Part shown: piece by piece, positions 27,614 through 47,292 of the stretch
Layout: the number at the start of each line of letters is the position of its first letter
Numbering within the stretch: the stretch's first letter is position 1
Assembly: GCA_963664225.1 (NCBI GenBank)
Contig: OY760937.1
Span: 5,568,001 to 5,632,000, forward strand
Reading direction: 5' to 3'
DNA length: 64,000 bases
Origin: Verrucomicrobiia bacterium
GTDB lineage: Bacteria > Verrucomicrobiota > Verrucomicrobiia > Limisphaerales > UBA1319
Program-made: the position numbers and the translations under genes
Notes under the pieces: generated by a model
Told to the model about the DNA's origin: nothing
Databases searched by the model: none
The model's input: only the letters and a program-made list of their open reading frames with translations

Positions 27614-27678
27614 CGACCGTTTATCATGATCAACTCTTTGCATTTGACTGCATCCACCAAACTTTGCCTGGCATTTTC
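27614..27678 (-). mobile_element. Relic 5' end (65 nt) of an intron-1-like group II intron
   Basis: 57/65 identical, without gaps, to 38032-38096. Confidence 0.85.
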
Positions 27679-27873
27679 CGAAATATGCTAAGTACGCGAA
27701 AAAGGGGGGAGAAGTCTTAATGCCGTCCCGCTGGGGCTTGGAATTGGTCGGGGGTGGCGTTTGCTATAAATATGTCACCCAGCTGGGGCTGGGAAGAAAT
27801 GGAGATACCACCACTCCGAACGATTGGACAAACTCTTGTCGTCGGGGACGGGTTTGGATAAGGTGGGCTGAGA

Positions 27874-36027: not shown

Positions 36028-36129
36028 AATAAAGCCACCTTAATGGTCTGCACCGGAATTCGCAACGCGCATTTGAAACGCGGGAACCGTCCACAAACAG
36101 GCAAGGATGCCAAGAAAGGGGGAAGGCCA

Positions 36130-38096
36130 GTAGAGTAGAGAGGAGAGCACGGAATGAAAGGCGCAAAGGCCAATGACCGCCGCTCACCTCTCCCTCGTCA
36201 AACCGGACATGCAGATTTCCCACATCCGGCTTTCGCCAGAGTCGTCTTTTCCAGATTGCATTCACAATGCCTTCAGGCCCAGTGTTTCGAGATGGGCATA
36301 GAGCGTGACTCCCTGACGGACGCGCCAGCCCCGCTGGCTTCGTCGTCGCAGGTGTTTGCCCAGCCGCACTCTCACGAAGTGGTTGATCTGGCGAAAGGCC
36401 CGTCGGGGTTGTCCGAGGTTGAAGTAGTTGCTCCAACCCCGCAAATGACGGTTGATCCGCCCGATCAACTCCGGCAGCGGCGTATGACTTTGCCCGGCAT
36501 TGATCAGCAGTCGCAACGCCTGCCTCTCCCGTTCCATCGCCTTGCCCGAAGGACACAGGTTGAGGTAGTGAAACGCCCTGCCGAATTGATCCCGGTCATA
36601 CCGGAAGGTGTAGCCCAGAAAGTCCAGGCTTTGCTCGTTGACGTTGACCACCCGGGTTTTGTCCCGGTTGATTTCCAGTGTGAGCCAGCCCTCCAGCTTT
36701 TCCTCAATCCATGCTCGCAGCTTGGGACCCATATACCGGGCCATGACCACAAAGTCGTCCGCATAGCGAACGAGCCGGGCATCCGCCCAGTGCGCCGGTC
36801 CATCCGCCCTTTGGAACAGGTGGTCGAACCAGTGCAGGTATATGTTGGCCAGTAACGGAGAGAGGACTCCGCCTTGCGGCGTGCCCCGATCCCGGCGGTT
36901 GACCCGAGGCGGTTCCTCTCCTTGGGGAGGTTCCACCACGGGGGCCGCCAGCCATTGCCGGATGAGTCCCAGAACCGCGCCGTCCACCACGCGCATCCGC
37001 ACGCAAGCCAGAAGCTTGTCGTGTGGAATGCTGTCGAAGTATCCGGCCAAGTCCGCGTCATACACTGCGTTCTTCCCCTCCTTCAGGTGTTTTTGGAGGG
37101 TTTGCAATGCGTCGTGCGCCGACCGTCCGGGCCGAAACCCGTAGGAACAATCCTCAAAGTCCGCTTCGAAGATGGGTTCCAGAATCAGCAATACCGCCGC
37201 TTGCACCACCCGATCCTTCACCGTCGGGATTCCCAGTGGCCGCAGTTTTCCGTTTGCCTTCGGTATATAGACCCGCCGCACCGGTTGGGCGCGGTAGGTC
37301 TTGTCCCGCAGGCTCTGCCTGATCGTTTCCAGAAACGCCGCTTCATTTTCAGGTGTCGCGGTGATTCGGTCGATGCTCACTCCGTCCACGCCCGGCGCCC
37401 CGCCGTTGCGCCGCACCGCAGCCCATGCCGCTTGCAGCACCTCCGGCAGGAACACCAGTCCGTAGAGACTGTAGAAGCGGAATCGCTTCTCTTGTTTGGC
37501 TTTCCGGCCCAGCTTCTGTCTCAGTTCCTGAAGTTTGGGCGGCAGGATCGCTTCCCGAAAGGAAAGTTCCTCCACCGCTTGTTCTGTCGTGGAAGTTTTC
37601 ACTTCAATCAGCTCCAGTTCCCTCTGACTCGGCTTGACTCTGGCCAGGGCTCCTTGGCTCCATCCCGGCTTGACCGGGATTTCGCAGCTACTATGAGCCC
37701 GTCCGACTCCCTGATCCTGAGCGCCCGCCGGTTATGGCTTCCCGACGTGCGTTCCCCGGTCTCGGGACCGAGGTTCAGGCAGGGTCTCCCAAGTTCCTGA
37801 TGGTTGTTTGGGTACGCGCTGTCTCCTCTGACCCCGGGGAGCTTGAAGGGTGCTTCTGGTCGAATCTTCCCCTCCAATGCTGGCTTCACCTTCTCTGACA
37901 GGCTGGCCACTCCCGCTTTAGAGTAACGAGGCTGAATCGAGTTCGCAGACGCTACGGCTCGCACCTTTGCCTTGCCCAGCTTGAACGCGGCGGGTCGCCC
38001 CACCACGCTTTGGACGCGGCTACATGACTCTCGACCTGTTATCATGATCAACTCGTTGCATTTGACTACAGCCACCAAACTTTGCTTGGCGCTTTC
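36130..38096 (-). mobile_element. Group II intron 1 (RT without endonuclease domain)
   Basis: Domain V AAGCCGGATGTGGGAAATCTGCATGTCCGGTTT, domain VI with bulged A ending CTCTAC, internal RT ORF. The 5' boundary is inferred from EBS1 and target reconstruction. Confidence 0.92.
36262..37602 (-). CDS. ltrA: Group II intron reverse transcriptase/maturase
   Basis: [52 protein letters not shown], domain X (LRGWSNYF). No HNH. Confidence 0.96.
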
Positions 38097-38151
38097 CAGA
38101 TGGCTCAGATAAACACAGAGGGGGGACCGTGAATGATGGTTCGTTTAAATG

Positions 38152-42024: not shown

Positions 42025-42906
42025 TCACTTGCGCGGGGAGGGTCGGCGGGTGGTTGTTTTTGATTTTGCCATGCCACGCAGGATGGCGAGGTTTTCGATG
42101 TCTTCGTGGAGATCCGGGGATTTGGGCGTTTCCAGACATCCGGGTGTGTTTTTGAACAGGGGATCATTGACGATATGGCGAAAGGCCTCGCTGCCGATTT
42201 TGCCCTGGCCAATGCCCGCATGGCGGTCCACGCGGGAGTTTAAATCCACCTTGGAATCGTTCAGATGAATGGCCAAAATTTCTTTTACTCCCACGGTGTC
42301 ATCGGCTTCCTGGATGGTGTTGGACCATCCTTTCGGGGTGCGAATGTCGTAACCTGCGGCGAAAAGATGGGCGGTATCCAGGCAGATTGCCAGGCGGGCG
42401 GGGGTATCGGCTGTGTCGTAAATCCTTTGGAGGTGGGCGAAACGATATCCGACGCAGGTACCCTGGCCCGCGGTAATTTCAAGGGCAATGCGAACCGGGG
42501 AGGAATGCGTGGCGCGAATGACTTCGTTCAAGCCGCTGGCTATTTGTTGAAAACCGGCTTCTTCGCCCTGACCGAGGTGAGCGCCCGGATGCAGAACCAG
42601 AAATGGCAGTTTAAGAACCGTGGCGATCTCGATTTCCTGGATGAGGGATTGAATGGATTTGTCGCGATTGGGTGAGGGCGACGCGCCCAGATTGATCAGG
42701 TAACCTGTGTGACCAAATATGCAGGCGAAGGGATGCTTGATTTGGAATTGTAGAAAGCGATCAACAATAGACGGATCGGGCGATTTTCCGAGCCATTGCA
42801 TGTTGTTCTTGACGAAAATCTGGACCACATCGCAGCCTATTGCGGCACCGCGTTCCAGGGCTTTGTCAACACCACCAATGGTGGGCATGTGAGCGCCGAA
42901 CATCAT
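42025..42906 (-). CDS. nfo: Endonuclease IV
   Basis: GAH, QIF, HTGYLINL, HPG, EITAGQG, CLDTAH, HLNDSK, DRHA, ETP. Confidence 0.96.
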   Translation of the reverse strand: MMFGAHMPTIGGVDKALERGAAIGCDVVQIFVKNNMQWLGKSPDPSIVDRFLQFQIKHPFACIFGHTGYLINLGASPSPNRDKSIQSLIQEIEIATVLKLPFLVLHPGAHLGQGEEAGFQQIASGLNEVIRATHSSPVRIALEITAGQGTCVGYRFAHLQRIYDTADTPARLAICLDTAHLFAAGYDIRTPKGWSNTIQEADDTVGVKEILAIHLNDSKVDLNSRVDRHAGIGQGKIGSEAFRHIVNDPLFKNTPGCLETPKSPDLHEDIENLAILRGMAKSKTTTRRPSPRK

Positions 42907-42951
42907 ATCAGCGTCCACTATTCCTCATCGATGCAGGTGCTTCAACTGGTA

Positions 42952-43118
42952 TTAACCCGAAATCCGAAATAGGAACGGCCCATCTGACGCAATCATTTGG
43001 CCATCCATGGTTTGAAACCGGCTGTGGAGTATTGATTTAATACACCTTCGCCGATTGCAAATCATGGCTGTCTCAAAGCATTGCATCATCTTGACCATTC
43101 TTATTTCGGATTTCGGGT
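42952..43118. repeat. ~167-bp imperfect palindrome with CCGAAAT-repeat termini (target of intron 2)
   Basis: The left arm TTAACCCGAAATCCGAAATAGGAACGGCC mirrors GACCATTCTTATTTCGGATTTCGGGT|TAA. Complementarity continues to a central GTATT-GATTT-AATAC loop. Confidence 0.85.
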
Positions 43119-45093
43119 GTGCGCCAGTGAAATTGGTAGCCTCGTGGGTGAAAGTCCCGCCGGTCGAATTAGACGGTTCACGACCGAAATGCAGCGTCCG
43201 GGACGAGGCCGTGAGGCCGAACCACAAGCGGGACGCTGAAAGAACTGTCGGGTCGTAACGAAAGTAAACCTCATCAAATGAGCTCCGAAACCGAAATAAC
43301 CGGTAAGCCGAGCCGCTACCCGAACGGCGAAGGCAGAAACGCGGCGTCATCAAATCGTCAAATGGGCGCTGTTGATTCCGGCGGAGTCAGCGAGGGCGAC
43401 ACGACAGGAAGGGAAACCAAGGTAAGCTGGGAGATCTCTGGAGGCGGGGCGATAAAGCCTCAACCGCCGGTGCAAGGAGGAACACCCTCCGAGGCCGCAC
43501 GGGCAGCCAGAGAAGTCGGAGTCTTCCATAGTAGCGAAGAAGCTGGGGCGACCAAAACCCCGGCGGAGCCAAGGGAAGGCACTTGGATCGAAGCGAATCA
43601 AAACAGCGAGGGACAGGGAGATGGCCTTGAGGGAGTGGAAACACTTTTTCAACGGATAACAACCCCGATAAAAGTTCAAAAGCTGCAGCGAGCGCTATAT
43701 TGCAAAGCCAAGGCTGAGCCGAAGTATCGGTTTTACAGCCTCTACGGAGAACTGCTGCGGAAGGACGTGCTGGAAACGGCAATGGCCTCCGTGGCGCACA
43801 ACAATGGCGCGGCTGGGATCGACGGGCAGACATGCGACGTCTATCTTGCCAGCGACGAAGCCTGGGACCAATGGCGGAACCAACTGCTGGAGGAGTTACG
43901 CACGAAGAAGTATCGGCCAAGCCCGGTGAAGCGTGTGTATATACCAAAAGGAGACGGGAAGCTGCGACCCCTGGGCATCCCGACAGTGAAAGACCGGGTG
44001 GTGCAGACAGCGGTGGTGATTGTATTGCTGCCGATTCTGGAAGCCGATAGTCATCCGAACAGTTACGCCTATCATCCCAAACGCAATGCCCACCAAGCAA
44101 TGGAGGCGATCAAGAAGGCTACGCTGACAGGACGCGTCGAAGTTATAGACGCGGACTTAAGCGGGTATTTTGACAGCATTCCCCACAGGCGTTTGTTGCG
44201 CATAGTGGCCAAGCGGGTCAGCGATGGAACAATTCTCAAGCTGATCGCAGGATGGCTGCGCGCGCCCGTGAATGAACCGCAAAGCGACACAGGGAAAGGC
44301 GGGACAAAGGGGGGGCAAGGTCAGAATCGACGGGGGACTCCGCAAGGCGGGGTTGTATCGCCGATTTTAGCCAATGCATACCTCAACCAGTTGGATTGGG
44401 AAGTCAACGAACGCTGCGAACTCAAACCCGTGATGGTGAGATACGCGGATGATTTCGTGATACTCGGACAGCCGGGGCAGGGACGGGAACTGATGGAACG
44501 ACTGGAACGATGGCTGAAGCAACGCGAGTTAGTGCTCAACGAGAAGAAGACCCGCTTGGTGGACCTCCGCCAGGATGGCATCAAATTCTTGGGATTCGCG
44601 CTAACAATGCGACAGGGGAAGGGGAAATGGAAATATCCGCATGTGGAACCCCATCCCAAGAGCCAGAAGAAGTTTCGAGACGGGATTCGGGAGAAACTCA
44701 ACCGAAGCACGCTATGGCGTGATATCGGAGAGGTGATTCCCGAGCTCAACAAGAAACTCAAAGGTTGGAAGGGTTACTTTCACTACGGGAACAGCACCAA
44801 GGTGATGGGCCAGATGAACGAATACGTCAGCAGCAAGTTACAACGATGGTTGTGGCGCAAACACGGATGTAGTCGGGCGCAATGGTCCACATACCCCAAG
44901 GAGGATCTCTATGAGCGTTATGGTTTATACCAAATGCCGGAATATGCGGCATGGAAACGATGACGTCGAAGCGATGCAACGTATGATCCCCGGAGAGCCG
45001 GATGCGGGAAAACCGCCTGTCCGGTTCGATGAGGGGCGAAATGCGACGGTCATTGGCCACGGCCATTCAATCCGTCCATTTCGCCTACTCTAC
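43119..45093 (+). mobile_element. Group II intron 2 (RT without endonuclease domain)
   Basis: 5' GTGCG, domain V GAGCCGGATGCGGGAAAACCGCCTGTCCGGTTC, 3' end CTACTCTAC. EBS1/EBS2 match the 5' exon. Confidence 0.95.
43635..44963 (+). CDS. ltrA: Group II intron reverse transcriptase/maturase
   Basis: [39 protein letters not shown], domain X. No HNH. The start (GTG 43635) is approximate; the longer ORF from 43278 runs through ribozyme sequence. Confidence 0.93.
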   Translation: METLFQRITTPIKVQKLQRALYCKAKAEPKYRFYSLYGELLRKDVLETAMASVAHNNGAAGIDGQTCDVYLASDEAWDQWRNQLLEELRTKKYRPSPVKRVYIPKGDGKLRPLGIPTVKDRVVQTAVVIVLLPILEADSHPNSYAYHPKRNAHQAMEAIKKATLTGRVEVIDADLSGYFDSIPHRRLLRIVAKRVSDGTILKLIAGWLRAPVNEPQSDTGKGGTKGGQGQNRRGTPQGGVVSPILANAYLNQLDWEVNERCELKPVMVRYADDFVILGQPGQGRELMERLERWLKQRELVLNEKKTRLVDLRQDGIKFLGFALTMRQGKGKWKYPHVEPHPKSQKKFRDGIREKLNRSTLWRDIGEVIPELNKKLKGWKGYFHYGNSTKVMGQMNEYVSSKLQRWLWRKHGCSRAQWSTYPKEDLYERYGLYQMPEYAAWKR

Positions 45094-46310
45094 TAAAGCA
45101 ATTCGGGGGTGTTCATCAAATCGGCAATGCGACTGAGCAGGCGTCCCGCTGCGCCGCCGTCAATGACACGGTGGTCGAAACTCAAGGTGAGATTCGCTTC
45201 CATGATGGGGACGAATTGGCCGGATTTTTCATCCCAGAAGGGTGATTTGCGTCCGGCTCCCAGTCCCAGCACGAGAGTTTGTTCGGGCAAGGGAATGGGG
45301 GTTGCCCACATCAGGCCAAAGGTGCCGAAATTGGTGACGGTGGCAATGGATCCGCCGGTGGCGCCCTGGGGCAACTGGCGTTTACGGGCGAGTTCAACCA
45401 TGTCGCTGTAAGGTTGGATCAGATCCTTGAGCAGGGTTTGATCGACGTTTCGAAACACGGGCACCAGAACTCCGTCCTCTGCTTCGACAGCAAAACCCAG
45501 GTCAATCGATGCGGGATGCATGATGCGTTTGCCGACCAACCGTCCTGCAGGGGCGCTGTTTTCGGCCAGGGCCAGGGCCAGAGCGCGCAACGCGTAGAGG
45601 GTTGGACCGGGTTTGGGATTGCAGGCCTTGCGATGCGCCAGCATGGGGTCCAGGCAGACCGGCAGGCCCACGGTTGCAATGGGGCGCGTCCAACTGCGGC
45701 GCATGGCGTCCGCTACCGCGACGCGCATGGTCGATGCAGGGCTGGTTTTGTTTTTTTCAAGGCCGGACAGAAATTTCTCAAAATCCTCAATGGTGACGCG
45801 GCCACCCGCGCCGCTTCCGGCCACCCCCGCCAAGTCAGCGGCATTCAGACCCAATTCCATGATGCGCGCCTTCATGCGCGGAGACATGTAACTCGCCCCG
45901 CGTGCATGGGCGGGCACGGGCAAGCCGTTGACGGTGGGTTCGACAATGTGTTGCGGCAGGCTGCCAGCGGGCGACCCGGGCAATGGGCCCTGGTTGTTTG
46001 AAGGAACAGATGTCGCAGAGGCATTTGCCGGCTGCTGGTCCAGGCCCAGTTTTGCGGCTTCCTCAATGCTGGCATCTAGATATCCCAACACAACGCCAAC
46101 GGGATAGCTTTGATCGATTTCCACCAACCAGCGGGCGATCGTGCCTGCGCAGGGGGCGGTGACGGTCATGGTAGCCTTATTGGTCTCCACTTCGAGGACA
46201 TCCTGACCGGAAGCGACCCATTCACCTGGTTTGACGAGAAGGTTGACGACCTTGGCCTCAGCGATGGATTCACCGAGTTGAGGCATGATAATGGGAACGG
46301 GAAGCGTCAT
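45093..46310 (-). CDS. 2-oxoacid dehydrogenase E2 (dihydrolipoamide acyltransferase)
   Basis: Lipoyl domain MPQLGESIAEA...VETNKA, peripheral binding motif GSGAGGRVTIED, catalytic DHRVIDG. Confidence 0.93.
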   Translation of the reverse strand: MTLPVPIIMPQLGESIAEAKVVNLLVKPGEWVASGQDVLEVETNKATMTVTAPCAGTIARWLVEIDQSYPVGVVLGYLDASIEEAAKLGLDQQPANASATSVPSNNQGPLPGSPAGSLPQHIVEPTVNGLPVPAHARGASYMSPRMKARIMELGLNAADLAGVAGSGAGGRVTIEDFEKFLSGLEKNKTSPASTMRVAVADAMRRSWTRPIATVGLPVCLDPMLAHRKACNPKPGPTLYALRALALALAENSAPAGRLVGKRIMHPASIDLGFAVEAEDGVLVPVFRNVDQTLLKDLIQPYSDMVELARKRQLPQGATGGSIATVTNFGTFGLMWATPIPLPEQTLVLGLGAGRKSPFWDEKSGQFVPIMEANLTLSFDHRVIDGGAAGRLLSRIADLMNTPELL

Positions 46311-46326
46311 GGCGATTGAGATTGGT

Positions 46327-47292
46327 TTAGGTGCGCAACATTTGGCGTGCGGCGTCTGCGATGGCGCGCGCGGTCGGACGGTGAACCCCCCATAGATTGG
46401 GGTGATACGGTACGGGAGTATCCTTGGCGTTGAGGCGCTGTGGGGGGACATCGAGCAAGTCGAGTCCTTCCGTGGCCACGCGGGCGATCACCTCGGCGGT
46501 CACACCACCCCAAGGCCAGCTTTCACCCACGCACAAGAGACGACCCGTGCGGGCGACTGAGGCCATCACCGTATCGGTGTCCAAAGGTTTGATGGAACGC
46601 AAATCGACGATTTCGATCTGGTAGCCTTCCAAAGCCAGTTCCTCGGCGGCAGCCAGGGCCTCATGCACCATGGCGCTGTAGGCGACGATGGTCATGTCGC
46701 GTCCGGGAAGGGCCACGCGCGCCTTGCCCGCTGGCAGGGCGGTGGTCGGCAGCGCCTCGGCCTTCAGATGGTAATAAAGGAATTTATGTTCAAAAAAGAT
46801 CACAGGATCGTCAATCGCCACGGCTTCCAGGAGCATGCTATAGGCGTCCTCCACCGTTGCCGGGGTAAAGGCGATCAAGCCCGGATAATGCGCGTAGATT
46901 GCTTCCAGACTCTGACTATGAAATGGACCGCTGCCCGACGTGCCGCCCGAAGGCAGACGGATGGTAATGGGGCAGGGCACGCCCGTTCGCCAGAAGAGAG
47001 TGGAGGCCTGGTTGACAATCTGGTTGAGGCCCACTGTGGAAAAGTCCGCAAATTGGATTTCAATGATGGGACGCATGCCCTCGATGGCCGCGCCAACCGC
47101 CGAACCGATCATCGCATCTTCGCTAATTGGGGCGTCAATAACGCGTCCGGGAAATTGTTGAGCCAGATTCTTGGTGGCCTTGAAAGCGCCTCCAAAAGCG
47201 CCCACATCCTGGCCGTAAATATAAACGCGCGGATCATCCGCGAGGGCTTTGGCCTGCGCGGCGCGAATGGCATCCAAATAGGTGATACTCAT
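46327..47292 (-). CDS. 2-oxoacid dehydrogenase E1 beta
   Basis: GQDVGAFGGAFKAT, DAPISE, EIQFADF, GPFHSQS, DPVIFFEHK. Confidence 0.95.
   Translation of the reverse strand: MSITYLDAIRAAQAKALADDPRVYIYGQDVGAFGGAFKATKNLAQQFPGRVIDAPISEDAMIGSAVGAAIEGMRPIIEIQFADFSTVGLNQIVNQASTLFWRTGVPCPITIRLPSGGTSGSGPFHSQSLEAIYAHYPGLIAFTPATVEDAYSMLLEAVAIDDPVIFFEHKFLYYHLKAEALPTTALPAGKARVALPGRDMTIVAYSAMVHEALAAAEELALEGYQIEIVDLRSIKPLDTDTVMASVARTGRLLCVGESWPWGGVTAEVIARVATEGLDLLDVPPQRLNAKDTPVPYHPNLWGVHRPTARAIADAARQMLRT

Follow-up and report, generated by a model that had tools for sequence, protein, structure and literature searches.

A group II intron without a detectable endonuclease domain at the tips of an IS1380-family element and its miniature relative in a Verrucomicrobiia genome

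How does a group II intron come to stand at the end of a long palindrome, and why is only one arm of that palindrome occupied? These questions are raised by a locus in the genome of a Verrucomicrobiia bacterium (GenBank assembly GCA_963664225.1, contig OY760937.1; here G000), a single-contig genome of 5.78 Mb with 56% G+C. The stretch of DNA analysed, called the window, covers 64,000 nucleotides (G000:C1:5568001-5632000), and coordinates without prefix are window positions. It contains a complete group II intron of 1975 nt on the plus strand (43119..45093). As set out below, this intron very probably retrohomes without an endonuclease into a site that exists only where an element of the IS1380 family of insertion sequences (IS), or one of its 162-bp MITEs (miniature inverted-repeat transposable elements), has landed.

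The intron opens with GTGCG at 43119 and closes with CTAC at 45093, as expected from the 5' GUGYG and 3' AY ends of group II introns. The domain I core (43151..43396, plus strand) matched Rfam family RF02005 (group-II-D1D4-6) with 54.9 bits (cut-off, 49) over model positions 1-225, in line with a domain I-IV ribozyme structure, and domains V and VI (44993..45093, plus strand) matched RF00029 with 49.3 bits (cut-off, 40). Between them, on the same strand and in domain IV, lies the gene for the intron-encoded protein (43638..44963), which has reverse transcriptase and maturase (X) domains (PF00078, 1e-34; PF08388, 7e-14; TIGR04416, 357 bits with a cut-off of 300). The reading frame is open from 43278, and the start at 43638 is only tentative. 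An endonuclease domain was not found by profile search, and the chain ends about 25 residues past X. Judged by these sequence features, the segment is a mobile-type bacterial group II intron without an endonuclease domain.

The genome contains 19 copies of the intron that are 100% identical over 1975 nt. The 5' exons of all 19 end in TCGGA(T/G)TTCGGGT and the 3' exons start with TAAA or TTAA; the full site is TCGGA(T/G)TTCGGGT|T(T/A)AA in every case, and the insertion point lies one base past the tip of a transposon. That transposon is what the earlier note had described as a long palindromic repeat. The repeat is palindromic, with inverted-repeat arms of 45 nt at 42955-42999 and 43074-43118 that are 80% complementary, but the description has to be extended: the target comprises the ends of a MITE as well as those of an IS1380-family element, and in the site, the tip is joined by one base, the first, of the target duplication. 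The MITE in the window (CCCGAAAT...ATTTCGGG) is a long imperfect palindrome of 162 bp (42956..43117) without an open reading frame. By BLAST, the genome contains 18 full-length copies with 93 to 100% identity; in addition, there are 4 fragments, and insertions interrupt 3 further copies.

The autonomous element with the same tip is an IS of 1532 bp that is present in five identical copies with an intact frame of 474 codons. Its protein is an IS1380-type DDE transposase (NF033539, 227 bits with a cut-off of 180; PF13701, 2e-27). The IS1380 family in ISfinder is characterized by terminal repeats starting with CC and target duplications of 4 to 5 bp; the ends found here are CCCGAAC...GTTCGGG, and all five copies are flanked by 5-bp duplications, TTTAA or TTAAA. 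The tips of MITE and IS match in 11 of the first 12 bases (common tip, CCCGAA[A/C]TCCGA). Duplications of 5 bp also flank 14 of 15 MITEs, and across both kinds of element they read TTTAA, TTAAA and once TTTAT. The MITE in the window is the sole exception: its left flank is ATTAA (42951..42955) and its right copy is TTAAA, so that only TTAA is common to both; the rest of the right copy, TAAA, lies beyond the intron at 45094..45097. Because the tip is shared with the IS and the 5-bp duplications next to both conform to one type, TTWAA, the palindrome is, on sequence grounds, a MITE and a non-autonomous relative of the active IS1380-family element of this genome. Two of the five IS copies (G000:C1:828087-829618 and 2984737-2986268) sit at the central TTTAA/TTAAA of a MITE, and both later gained an intron at one end, which gives three nested layers of mobile elements. 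In another MITE (G000:C1:264553-266581), the insert that splits it has about 1.86 kb and is distinct from both the intron and the 1532-bp IS.

The duplications also tell when and how the intron arrived. When the 19 introns were removed in silico, identical 5-bp flanks were restored at 5/5 IS copies and 14/15 MITEs. This fixes the intron boundaries and, moreover, implies that in every case the transposon was there first and the intron then inserted one base beyond its end (CGGG T|TTAA or CGGG T|TAAA), outside the transposon and inside the target duplication. Eight copies sit at MITE arm B and five at MITE arm A; three are at IS end one, a single copy is at IS end two, and two are at solo tips. 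These five upstream contexts have only about 13 bases in common. The introns might nevertheless have spread passively, by hitch-hiking with MITE or IS transposition or by homologous recombination between MITEs, and indeed they always adjoin these elements, of which the five identical IS copies must have been active recently. However, an intron whose insertion point lies outside the terminal repeat and inside the duplication cannot travel with the transposon, and since the 3' flanks are unique, there is no homology for recombination on that side and copying by this route is impossible. Furthermore, the MITE copies differ by up to 7%, whereas the introns are identical. Passive spread was therefore rejected on the evidence of the target duplications, and we give it next to no chance. 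Read in this way, the sequences indicate that each of the 19 copies is a separate retrohoming event, and they argue indirectly, as 19 identical copies at one type of site, for the ability of the intron to splice and to retrohome.

The two solo tips that carry an intron (G000:C1:2065437 and 3974268) consist of a transposon end of 13 to 15 nt and a TTAAA flank. A search of the surrounding 6 kb that allowed up to two mismatches revealed no partner repeat for either, and these tips are probably remnants of truncated elements.

How is the site recognized? The first exon-binding site (EBS1) of the intron, ACCCGAA (43318..43324, plus strand), is located in the 9-nt loop of a hairpin at 43312-43328, GCCG(43312-15)-CUACCCGAA-CGGC(43325-28), and is complementary in 7 of 7 positions to the last exon bases, TTCGGGT (43112..43118, plus strand). 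These form the intron-binding site IBS1, which comprises the six terminal bases of the MITE tip and the T that opens the target duplication. The earlier note had proposed this pairing, and it is exact, with all coordinates right. A second stretch, CCGAAATAA (CCGAAAUAA; 43291..43299, plus strand), lies in a 13-nt internal loop (43287-43299) and is the EBS2 candidate; its exact complement, TTATTTCGG (43101..43109, plus strand), is the IBS2 candidate. The core of the latter, TCGG (43106-43109), is common to all 19 occupied sites and is separated from IBS1 by a linker of 2 nt (43110-43111). On the 3' side, a T begins the exon at every junction seen (IBS3; 45094 in the window). In the RF02005 model, EBS1 falls into a 9-nt terminal loop and the EBS2 candidate into the 13-nt internal loop of domain I. 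The fold of an isolated piece of domain I (43270-43400) recovered the EBS1 hairpin and missed the internal loop of the Rfam model; with z = -0.3 compared with shuffles, this fold was uninformative.

If EBS1 is the guide, it should change together with the exon in related introns. We therefore looked at homologues, with one genome scanned per species. Four introns encode proteins that are 76 to 78% identical to that of the window intron, followed by a gap down to about 43%. Domain I of these homologues is 93% identical by column, and the differences cluster in the EBS1 loop and in the loop of the EBS2 candidate. The three homologues that have a 5' exon, L005, L007 and L006, carry the EBS1 sequences ACCTGAA, TCCTGAA and CCACGGA, and their exons end in TTCAGGT, TTCAGGA and TCCGTGG, respectively. 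EBS1 and IBS1 thus pair in 7 of 7 positions in 3 of 3 homologues, each time with a different sequence.

Seven bases of IBS1 do not suffice to explain the choice of sites. TTCGGGT occurs 602 times in the genome; all 19 occupied sites are among the 51 that read TCGGA[TG]TTCGGGT, and none of the roughly 213 other TTCGGGTT sites genome-wide (244 TTCGGGTT sites without an intron, from which 31 empty tips with T at +1 are subtracted) is occupied. Only two sites away from transposon tips have TCGG at -13 to -10; neither is in the right orientation, and one lacks T at +1 as well. A rule of four bases of IBS2 core, a linker of two bases, seven bases of IBS1 and T at +1 accounts for all copies. The idea that a multi-copy repeat serves as the homing site was therefore borne out. 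The 15-nt terminal motif ATTTCGGATTTCGGG occurs twice in the window with 0.34 expected, but 5 of 100 shuffles reach that number, and its frequency within the window alone is weak evidence; genome-wide, it has 42 exact matches and is far from single copy.

All 51 of these sites are at MITE and IS tips, and since the target is present on both strands of each element, every MITE or IS always offers one usable copy if only one strand can be used. The other arm of the MITE in the window carries such a target on the minus strand (...ATTTCGGATTTCGGGT|TAA, or CCTATTTCGGATTTCGGGT|TAA; 42952..42973), which, as the earlier note had stated, is nearly identical and empty. We asked whether replication direction distinguishes the two. 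The gene dnaA is at 2.9906 Mb, the cumulative GC skew peaks locally near 1.3 Mb and climbs anew from about 3.6 Mb, and the gene-strand bias switches near 1.2 Mb and at 3.0-3.2 Mb. The replication map used here assumes that replication starts near dnaA and ends near 1.3 Mb. Between 1.66 and 2.19 Mb, the intron copies are on the minus strand; the others, at 0.05-0.95 and 2.99-5.61 Mb, are on the plus strand. On this map, 18 of the 24 sites oriented with the fork are occupied (6 are empty), compared with 0 of 23 in the opposite orientation (Fisher p = 3.7e-8); within 2.98-3.00 Mb, where no direction was assigned, one site is occupied and three are empty. Not a single element in G000 is occupied at both ends. 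Given this origin and terminus, the occupied strand would be the lagging-strand template. The empty arm in the window faces against the fork, and it would be empty because insertion is limited to the strand co-oriented with the fork.

The same bias could arise if insertion was random and selection or transcription direction shaped the pattern afterwards. Genes in this genome are modestly co-oriented with the inferred fork direction, as this explanation requires. However, gene-strand bias reaches only about 55-65% whereas the introns are distributed 18:0; the identity of all copies gives selection little time to act; and the copy in the window is antisense to both of its neighbouring genes. We regard an origin of the bias after insertion as improbable and prefer a bias of the insertion reaction itself.

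Another possibility is that the ribonucleoprotein does not read the tip at all but recognizes the stem-loop of the MITE and inserts at its 3' base, as introns of group IIC do at terminators and attC sites. The earlier note had mentioned group IIC introns as inserting after stem-loops but lacking EBS2. As single-stranded DNA, the whole MITE folds into a long hairpin (z = -6.8; -41.3 kcal/mol), and a single base separates its stem from the insertion point. Like group IIC introns, the window intron is intergenic, sits just 3' of a DNA stem and has no endonuclease domain; moreover, the homologue in genome G001 is likewise positioned after palindromic repeats, and the single-copy homologue L007 adjoins a 6-bp hairpin located upstream. 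On the other hand, 4 of 10 IS ends are occupied although the partner arm is 1.5 kb away, and so are the two solo tips. IBS1 and IBS2 both lie inside the terminal stem, where folding would hide them. Of two equivalent hairpin bases, only one is ever used. EBS1 of group IIC introns pairs with 3 to 4 bases of a short IBS1 and these introns have no EBS2; unlike them, the window intron has an IBS1 of 7 bases inside the stem, has an EBS2 candidate and uses sites without a stem, and its ribozyme, at about 650 nt, exceeds that of IIC introns in size. Because the binding sites are buried in the stem, IS ends and solo tips are used and only one hairpin base is used, homing guided by the hairpin is unlikely, and the hairpin of the MITE would be incidental. 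A IIC-like role of the hairpin was not supported.

G001, a fragmented assembly that contains L006, yielded 37 intron matches, mostly at contig ends, to an intron that is 77% identical to the window intron. Of 18 loci examined, all 13 in which a 5' junction was found had that junction at the tip of a palindromic repeat of about 60 to 90 bp ending in ...ATCCGTGNNATCCGTGG, and the pattern of the repeat tip gave 170 matches in this genome compared with 0 for a control pattern. Genomes G002 and G003, in contrast to this, have single intron copies in non-repeat sites. Homologues are thus not confined to unrelated, non-repeat sites, which would have spoken against repeat targeting. The repeats of G001 (for example L085 and L088-L099) carry at their tips a 9-mer repeated in tandem (CACGGATNA, three times). 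Around some copies, there are TTAA flanks within a further palindrome, and the repeats may be MITEs or REP-like sequences.

From these observations, we propose the following mechanism for the window intron. The site would be assembled from TCGG-NN-TTCGGG, provided by the transposon tip, and T|T(T/A)AA, provided by the 5-bp target duplication. The intron RNA would read it by base pairing: EBS1 pairs with seven bases, the EBS2 loop probably pairs with 4 to 9 bases at -10 to -18, and an A of the intron RNA presumably pairs with the invariant T at +1. The RNA would reverse-splice only into the strand that serves as the lagging-strand template, where an Okazaki fragment could prime cDNA synthesis, as suggested by the strand statistics and by what is described for RmInt1 and RmInt2. 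Such a primer would be needed because the intron protein would be unable to cut the second strand.

A less secure step is the reading of the bases upstream of IBS1. Alternatively, these bases might be chosen by the intron protein and not by EBS2-IBS2 pairing, in which case the tandem ATTTCGG-ATTTCGGG tip would have given rise to the 9-bp match as a side effect. In this genome, pairing is favoured: not one of 2000 shuffles of exon bases -32 to -8 reached 9 Watson-Crick pairs with the 13-nt loop, which is a single-stranded internal loop in the Rfam model and, besides EBS1, the most variable stretch of domain I. Furthermore, in all occupied sites, TCGG or more faces CCGA across an unchanged 2-nt linker, and the linker and the minimum of four pairs mirror RmInt2 (PMC4615759). 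In the homologues, it is not favoured. The EBS2-candidate loops of L005, L006 and L007 had best matches of only 3 to 4 bp to their own exons (shuffle p, 0.5 to 1.0), so no covariation was seen; L006 is from G001, the genome with many copies, and L004 and L007 have the same loop sequence but different EBS1 sequences. Proteins of the RmInt1 type are described in the same paper as reading distal bases of the 5' exon. Therefore, bases -8 to -13 could be read by the protein instead. Because the loops of the homologues pair no better than chance, EBS2 is half-supported, within this genome alone: the complementarity claimed in the earlier note is exact and exceeds that of shuffled exons, but it has no counterpart in the three homologues. 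We consider recognition by the protein a serious alternative, if somewhat the less probable one, and keep EBS2 pairing as the working assumption.

The failure of EBS2 to covary is one of several points that weigh against the proposed mechanism. Origin and terminus were inferred from dnaA, GC skew and gene-strand bias. The replichores that they imply differ greatly in length (about 4.1 and 1.7 Mb), there is hardly any GC skew over 1.8-3.5 Mb, and the four sites not assignable to a direction, one of them occupied, all lie within 6 kb of dnaA. With respect to activity, a consensus scan revealed no promoter-like site upstream of the copy in the window, and this copy is antisense to both adjoining genes. 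Identical copies could in principle reflect smoothing by the assembler; as a rough check, the word depth of intron contigs was about 20 times that of the flanks in two public runs (X1, 427 with flanks of 19-21; X2, 157 with flanks of 5-11), which fits many copies but does not give a copy number. Contigs of four public runs cover the locus, and none of them joins across the intron, so an empty allele was not seen in these runs. As to the chromosome itself, GC skew of the plus strand is positive over most of its length (cumulative, +116,000), and the position of dnaA at 2.99 Mb, far from opposite to the apparent terminus at about 1.3 Mb, suggests very unequal replichores or a recent rearrangement.

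Is this way of life new among group II introns? The closest parallel is RmInt2 of Sinorhizobium meliloti GR4, a class D, IIB intron without endonuclease that homes into the inverted repeats of ISRm17. According to PMC4615759, RmInt2 is present in seven identical copies, all of them in ISRm17 inverted repeats, and each ISRm17 has a pair of sites, one on either replication strand. IBS2 and IBS1 are set apart by a 2-nt linker at -8/-9, four EBS2/IBS2 pairs suffice for homing, EBS3/IBS3 is a U-A pair, and homing is biased to the lagging-strand template; RmInt1 and RmInt2 share this preference, with the nascent lagging strand as the presumed primer of cDNA synthesis. The window intron resembles RmInt2 as described there in its identical full-length copies in terminal inverted repeats with two opposite-strand sites per element, and further in the lack of an endonuclease domain, the apparent lagging-template bias, the 2-nt linker, the minimum of four candidate EBS2 pairs and the T at +1 (putative A/U pair of EBS3/IBS3). 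Unlike RmInt2, it is not of class D, its host is an IS1380-family IS and mostly the MITEs of that IS, and its site extends from the transposon tip into the target duplication; moreover, the bias found here comes from 19 natural copies in a genome, whereas that of RmInt2 comes from plasmid assays. RmInt1 (S. meliloti, class D, ISRm2011-2) also has a reverse transcriptase/maturase without endonuclease, an IS as safe haven and priming by the nascent lagging strand (same paper), but it belongs to a different intron class, and its target lies within a transposase gene, so that each element has a single site. By analogy, the strategy is that of RmInt2 with ISRm17, where the principle is already established. 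In the literature, we found no description of a group II intron that targets IS1380 or MITE tips.

The class of the window intron was compared with three labelled references (one each of groups g3 and g1 and one member of class D). Among these, the closest is Ni.ha.I1 of Nitrobacter hamburgensis plasmid 1, which is listed in group g3, formerly 'bacterial F', in Table S2 of Toro & Martinez-Abarca 2013 (PMC3552965). Its protein is 39.5 to 40% identical to that of the window intron and likewise has RT and X domains only; Ni.ha.I1 sits in an IS4-type transposase gene. Its domain I, however, belongs to RF02003 and not to RF02005, and an identity of about 40% would be too low to claim the same class. 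Sr.me.I2 (g1) has 31% protein identity and no domain-I family at gathering score. The class D intron on pBpOF4-01 has 29% identity and a domain I of family RF01999; class D membership was rejected on these two grounds, 29% compared with 39.5% for the g3 member and RF02005 instead of RF01999. A tentative interpretation, which we rate a little below an even chance, is that the window intron belongs to a distinct lineage, with a ribozyme of the RF02005 type and an endonuclease-less protein at most about 40% identical to labelled classes, that is specialized on palindromic MITE-type tips across phyla, re-tunes mainly EBS1 and fills nearly all lagging-template copies (75% here) but never the other strand.

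The window holds a second intron, intron 1 (about 36127-38098, minus strand), which also matches RF02005 and encodes a protein 41% identical to that of the intron discussed so far. It is present in four copies in the genome with about 99% identity, each with different single-copy flanks; the claim that the window contains two repeat-targeting introns thus fails for intron 1. The block common to its copies starts with TGGAAAGCGCC and not with GUGYG. In all four copies, the 5' flank has a GTG 17 to 22 nt upstream and a TGAG motif, and the 3' flank starts with YGG. A 66-nt fragment at 27614-27679 is 88% identical to the first bases of intron 1 and is possibly a 5' remnant of it.

The genes that adjoin the MITE and the window intron are both on the minus strand and antisense to the intron, which separates them by 2 kb. 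On the left is a gene for an AP_endonuc_2/xylose-isomerase-like TIM barrel protein (42025..42918; PF01261, E = 1.2e-48). On the right is a gene for a 2-oxoacid dehydrogenase E2 acyltransferase (45093..46451; PF00198, PF00364), the stop codon of which spans the 3' junction of the intron (45093-45097) and reads TAG with the intron and TAA at the empty site. The MITE had landed on this stop, and the stop was kept at each stage, as TAA within the target duplication and then as TAG.

What does this mean for the intron and its host? The long palindrome at this locus is explained as an IS1380-derived MITE, and the homing site is made by the insertion of another mobile element, from its tip and a duplicated base; the intron is thus a parasite of a parasite. 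Since the same target is present on both strands of each transposon, the choice of 18:0 isolates the replication-strand requirement without any cloning. In a genome with an odd GC skew, the orientation of intron copies is an independent pointer to origin and terminus, and if the lineage is indeed distinct, its insertions would be a built-in recorder of replication direction where origin and terminus are hard to map. A homologue from another genome likewise targets repeat tips, in its case those of a different repeat. These findings do not overturn the current understanding of group II introns; what they add is a genome-wide strand experiment, a composite site of transposon tip and target duplication, and a habit that recurs on a different repeat.

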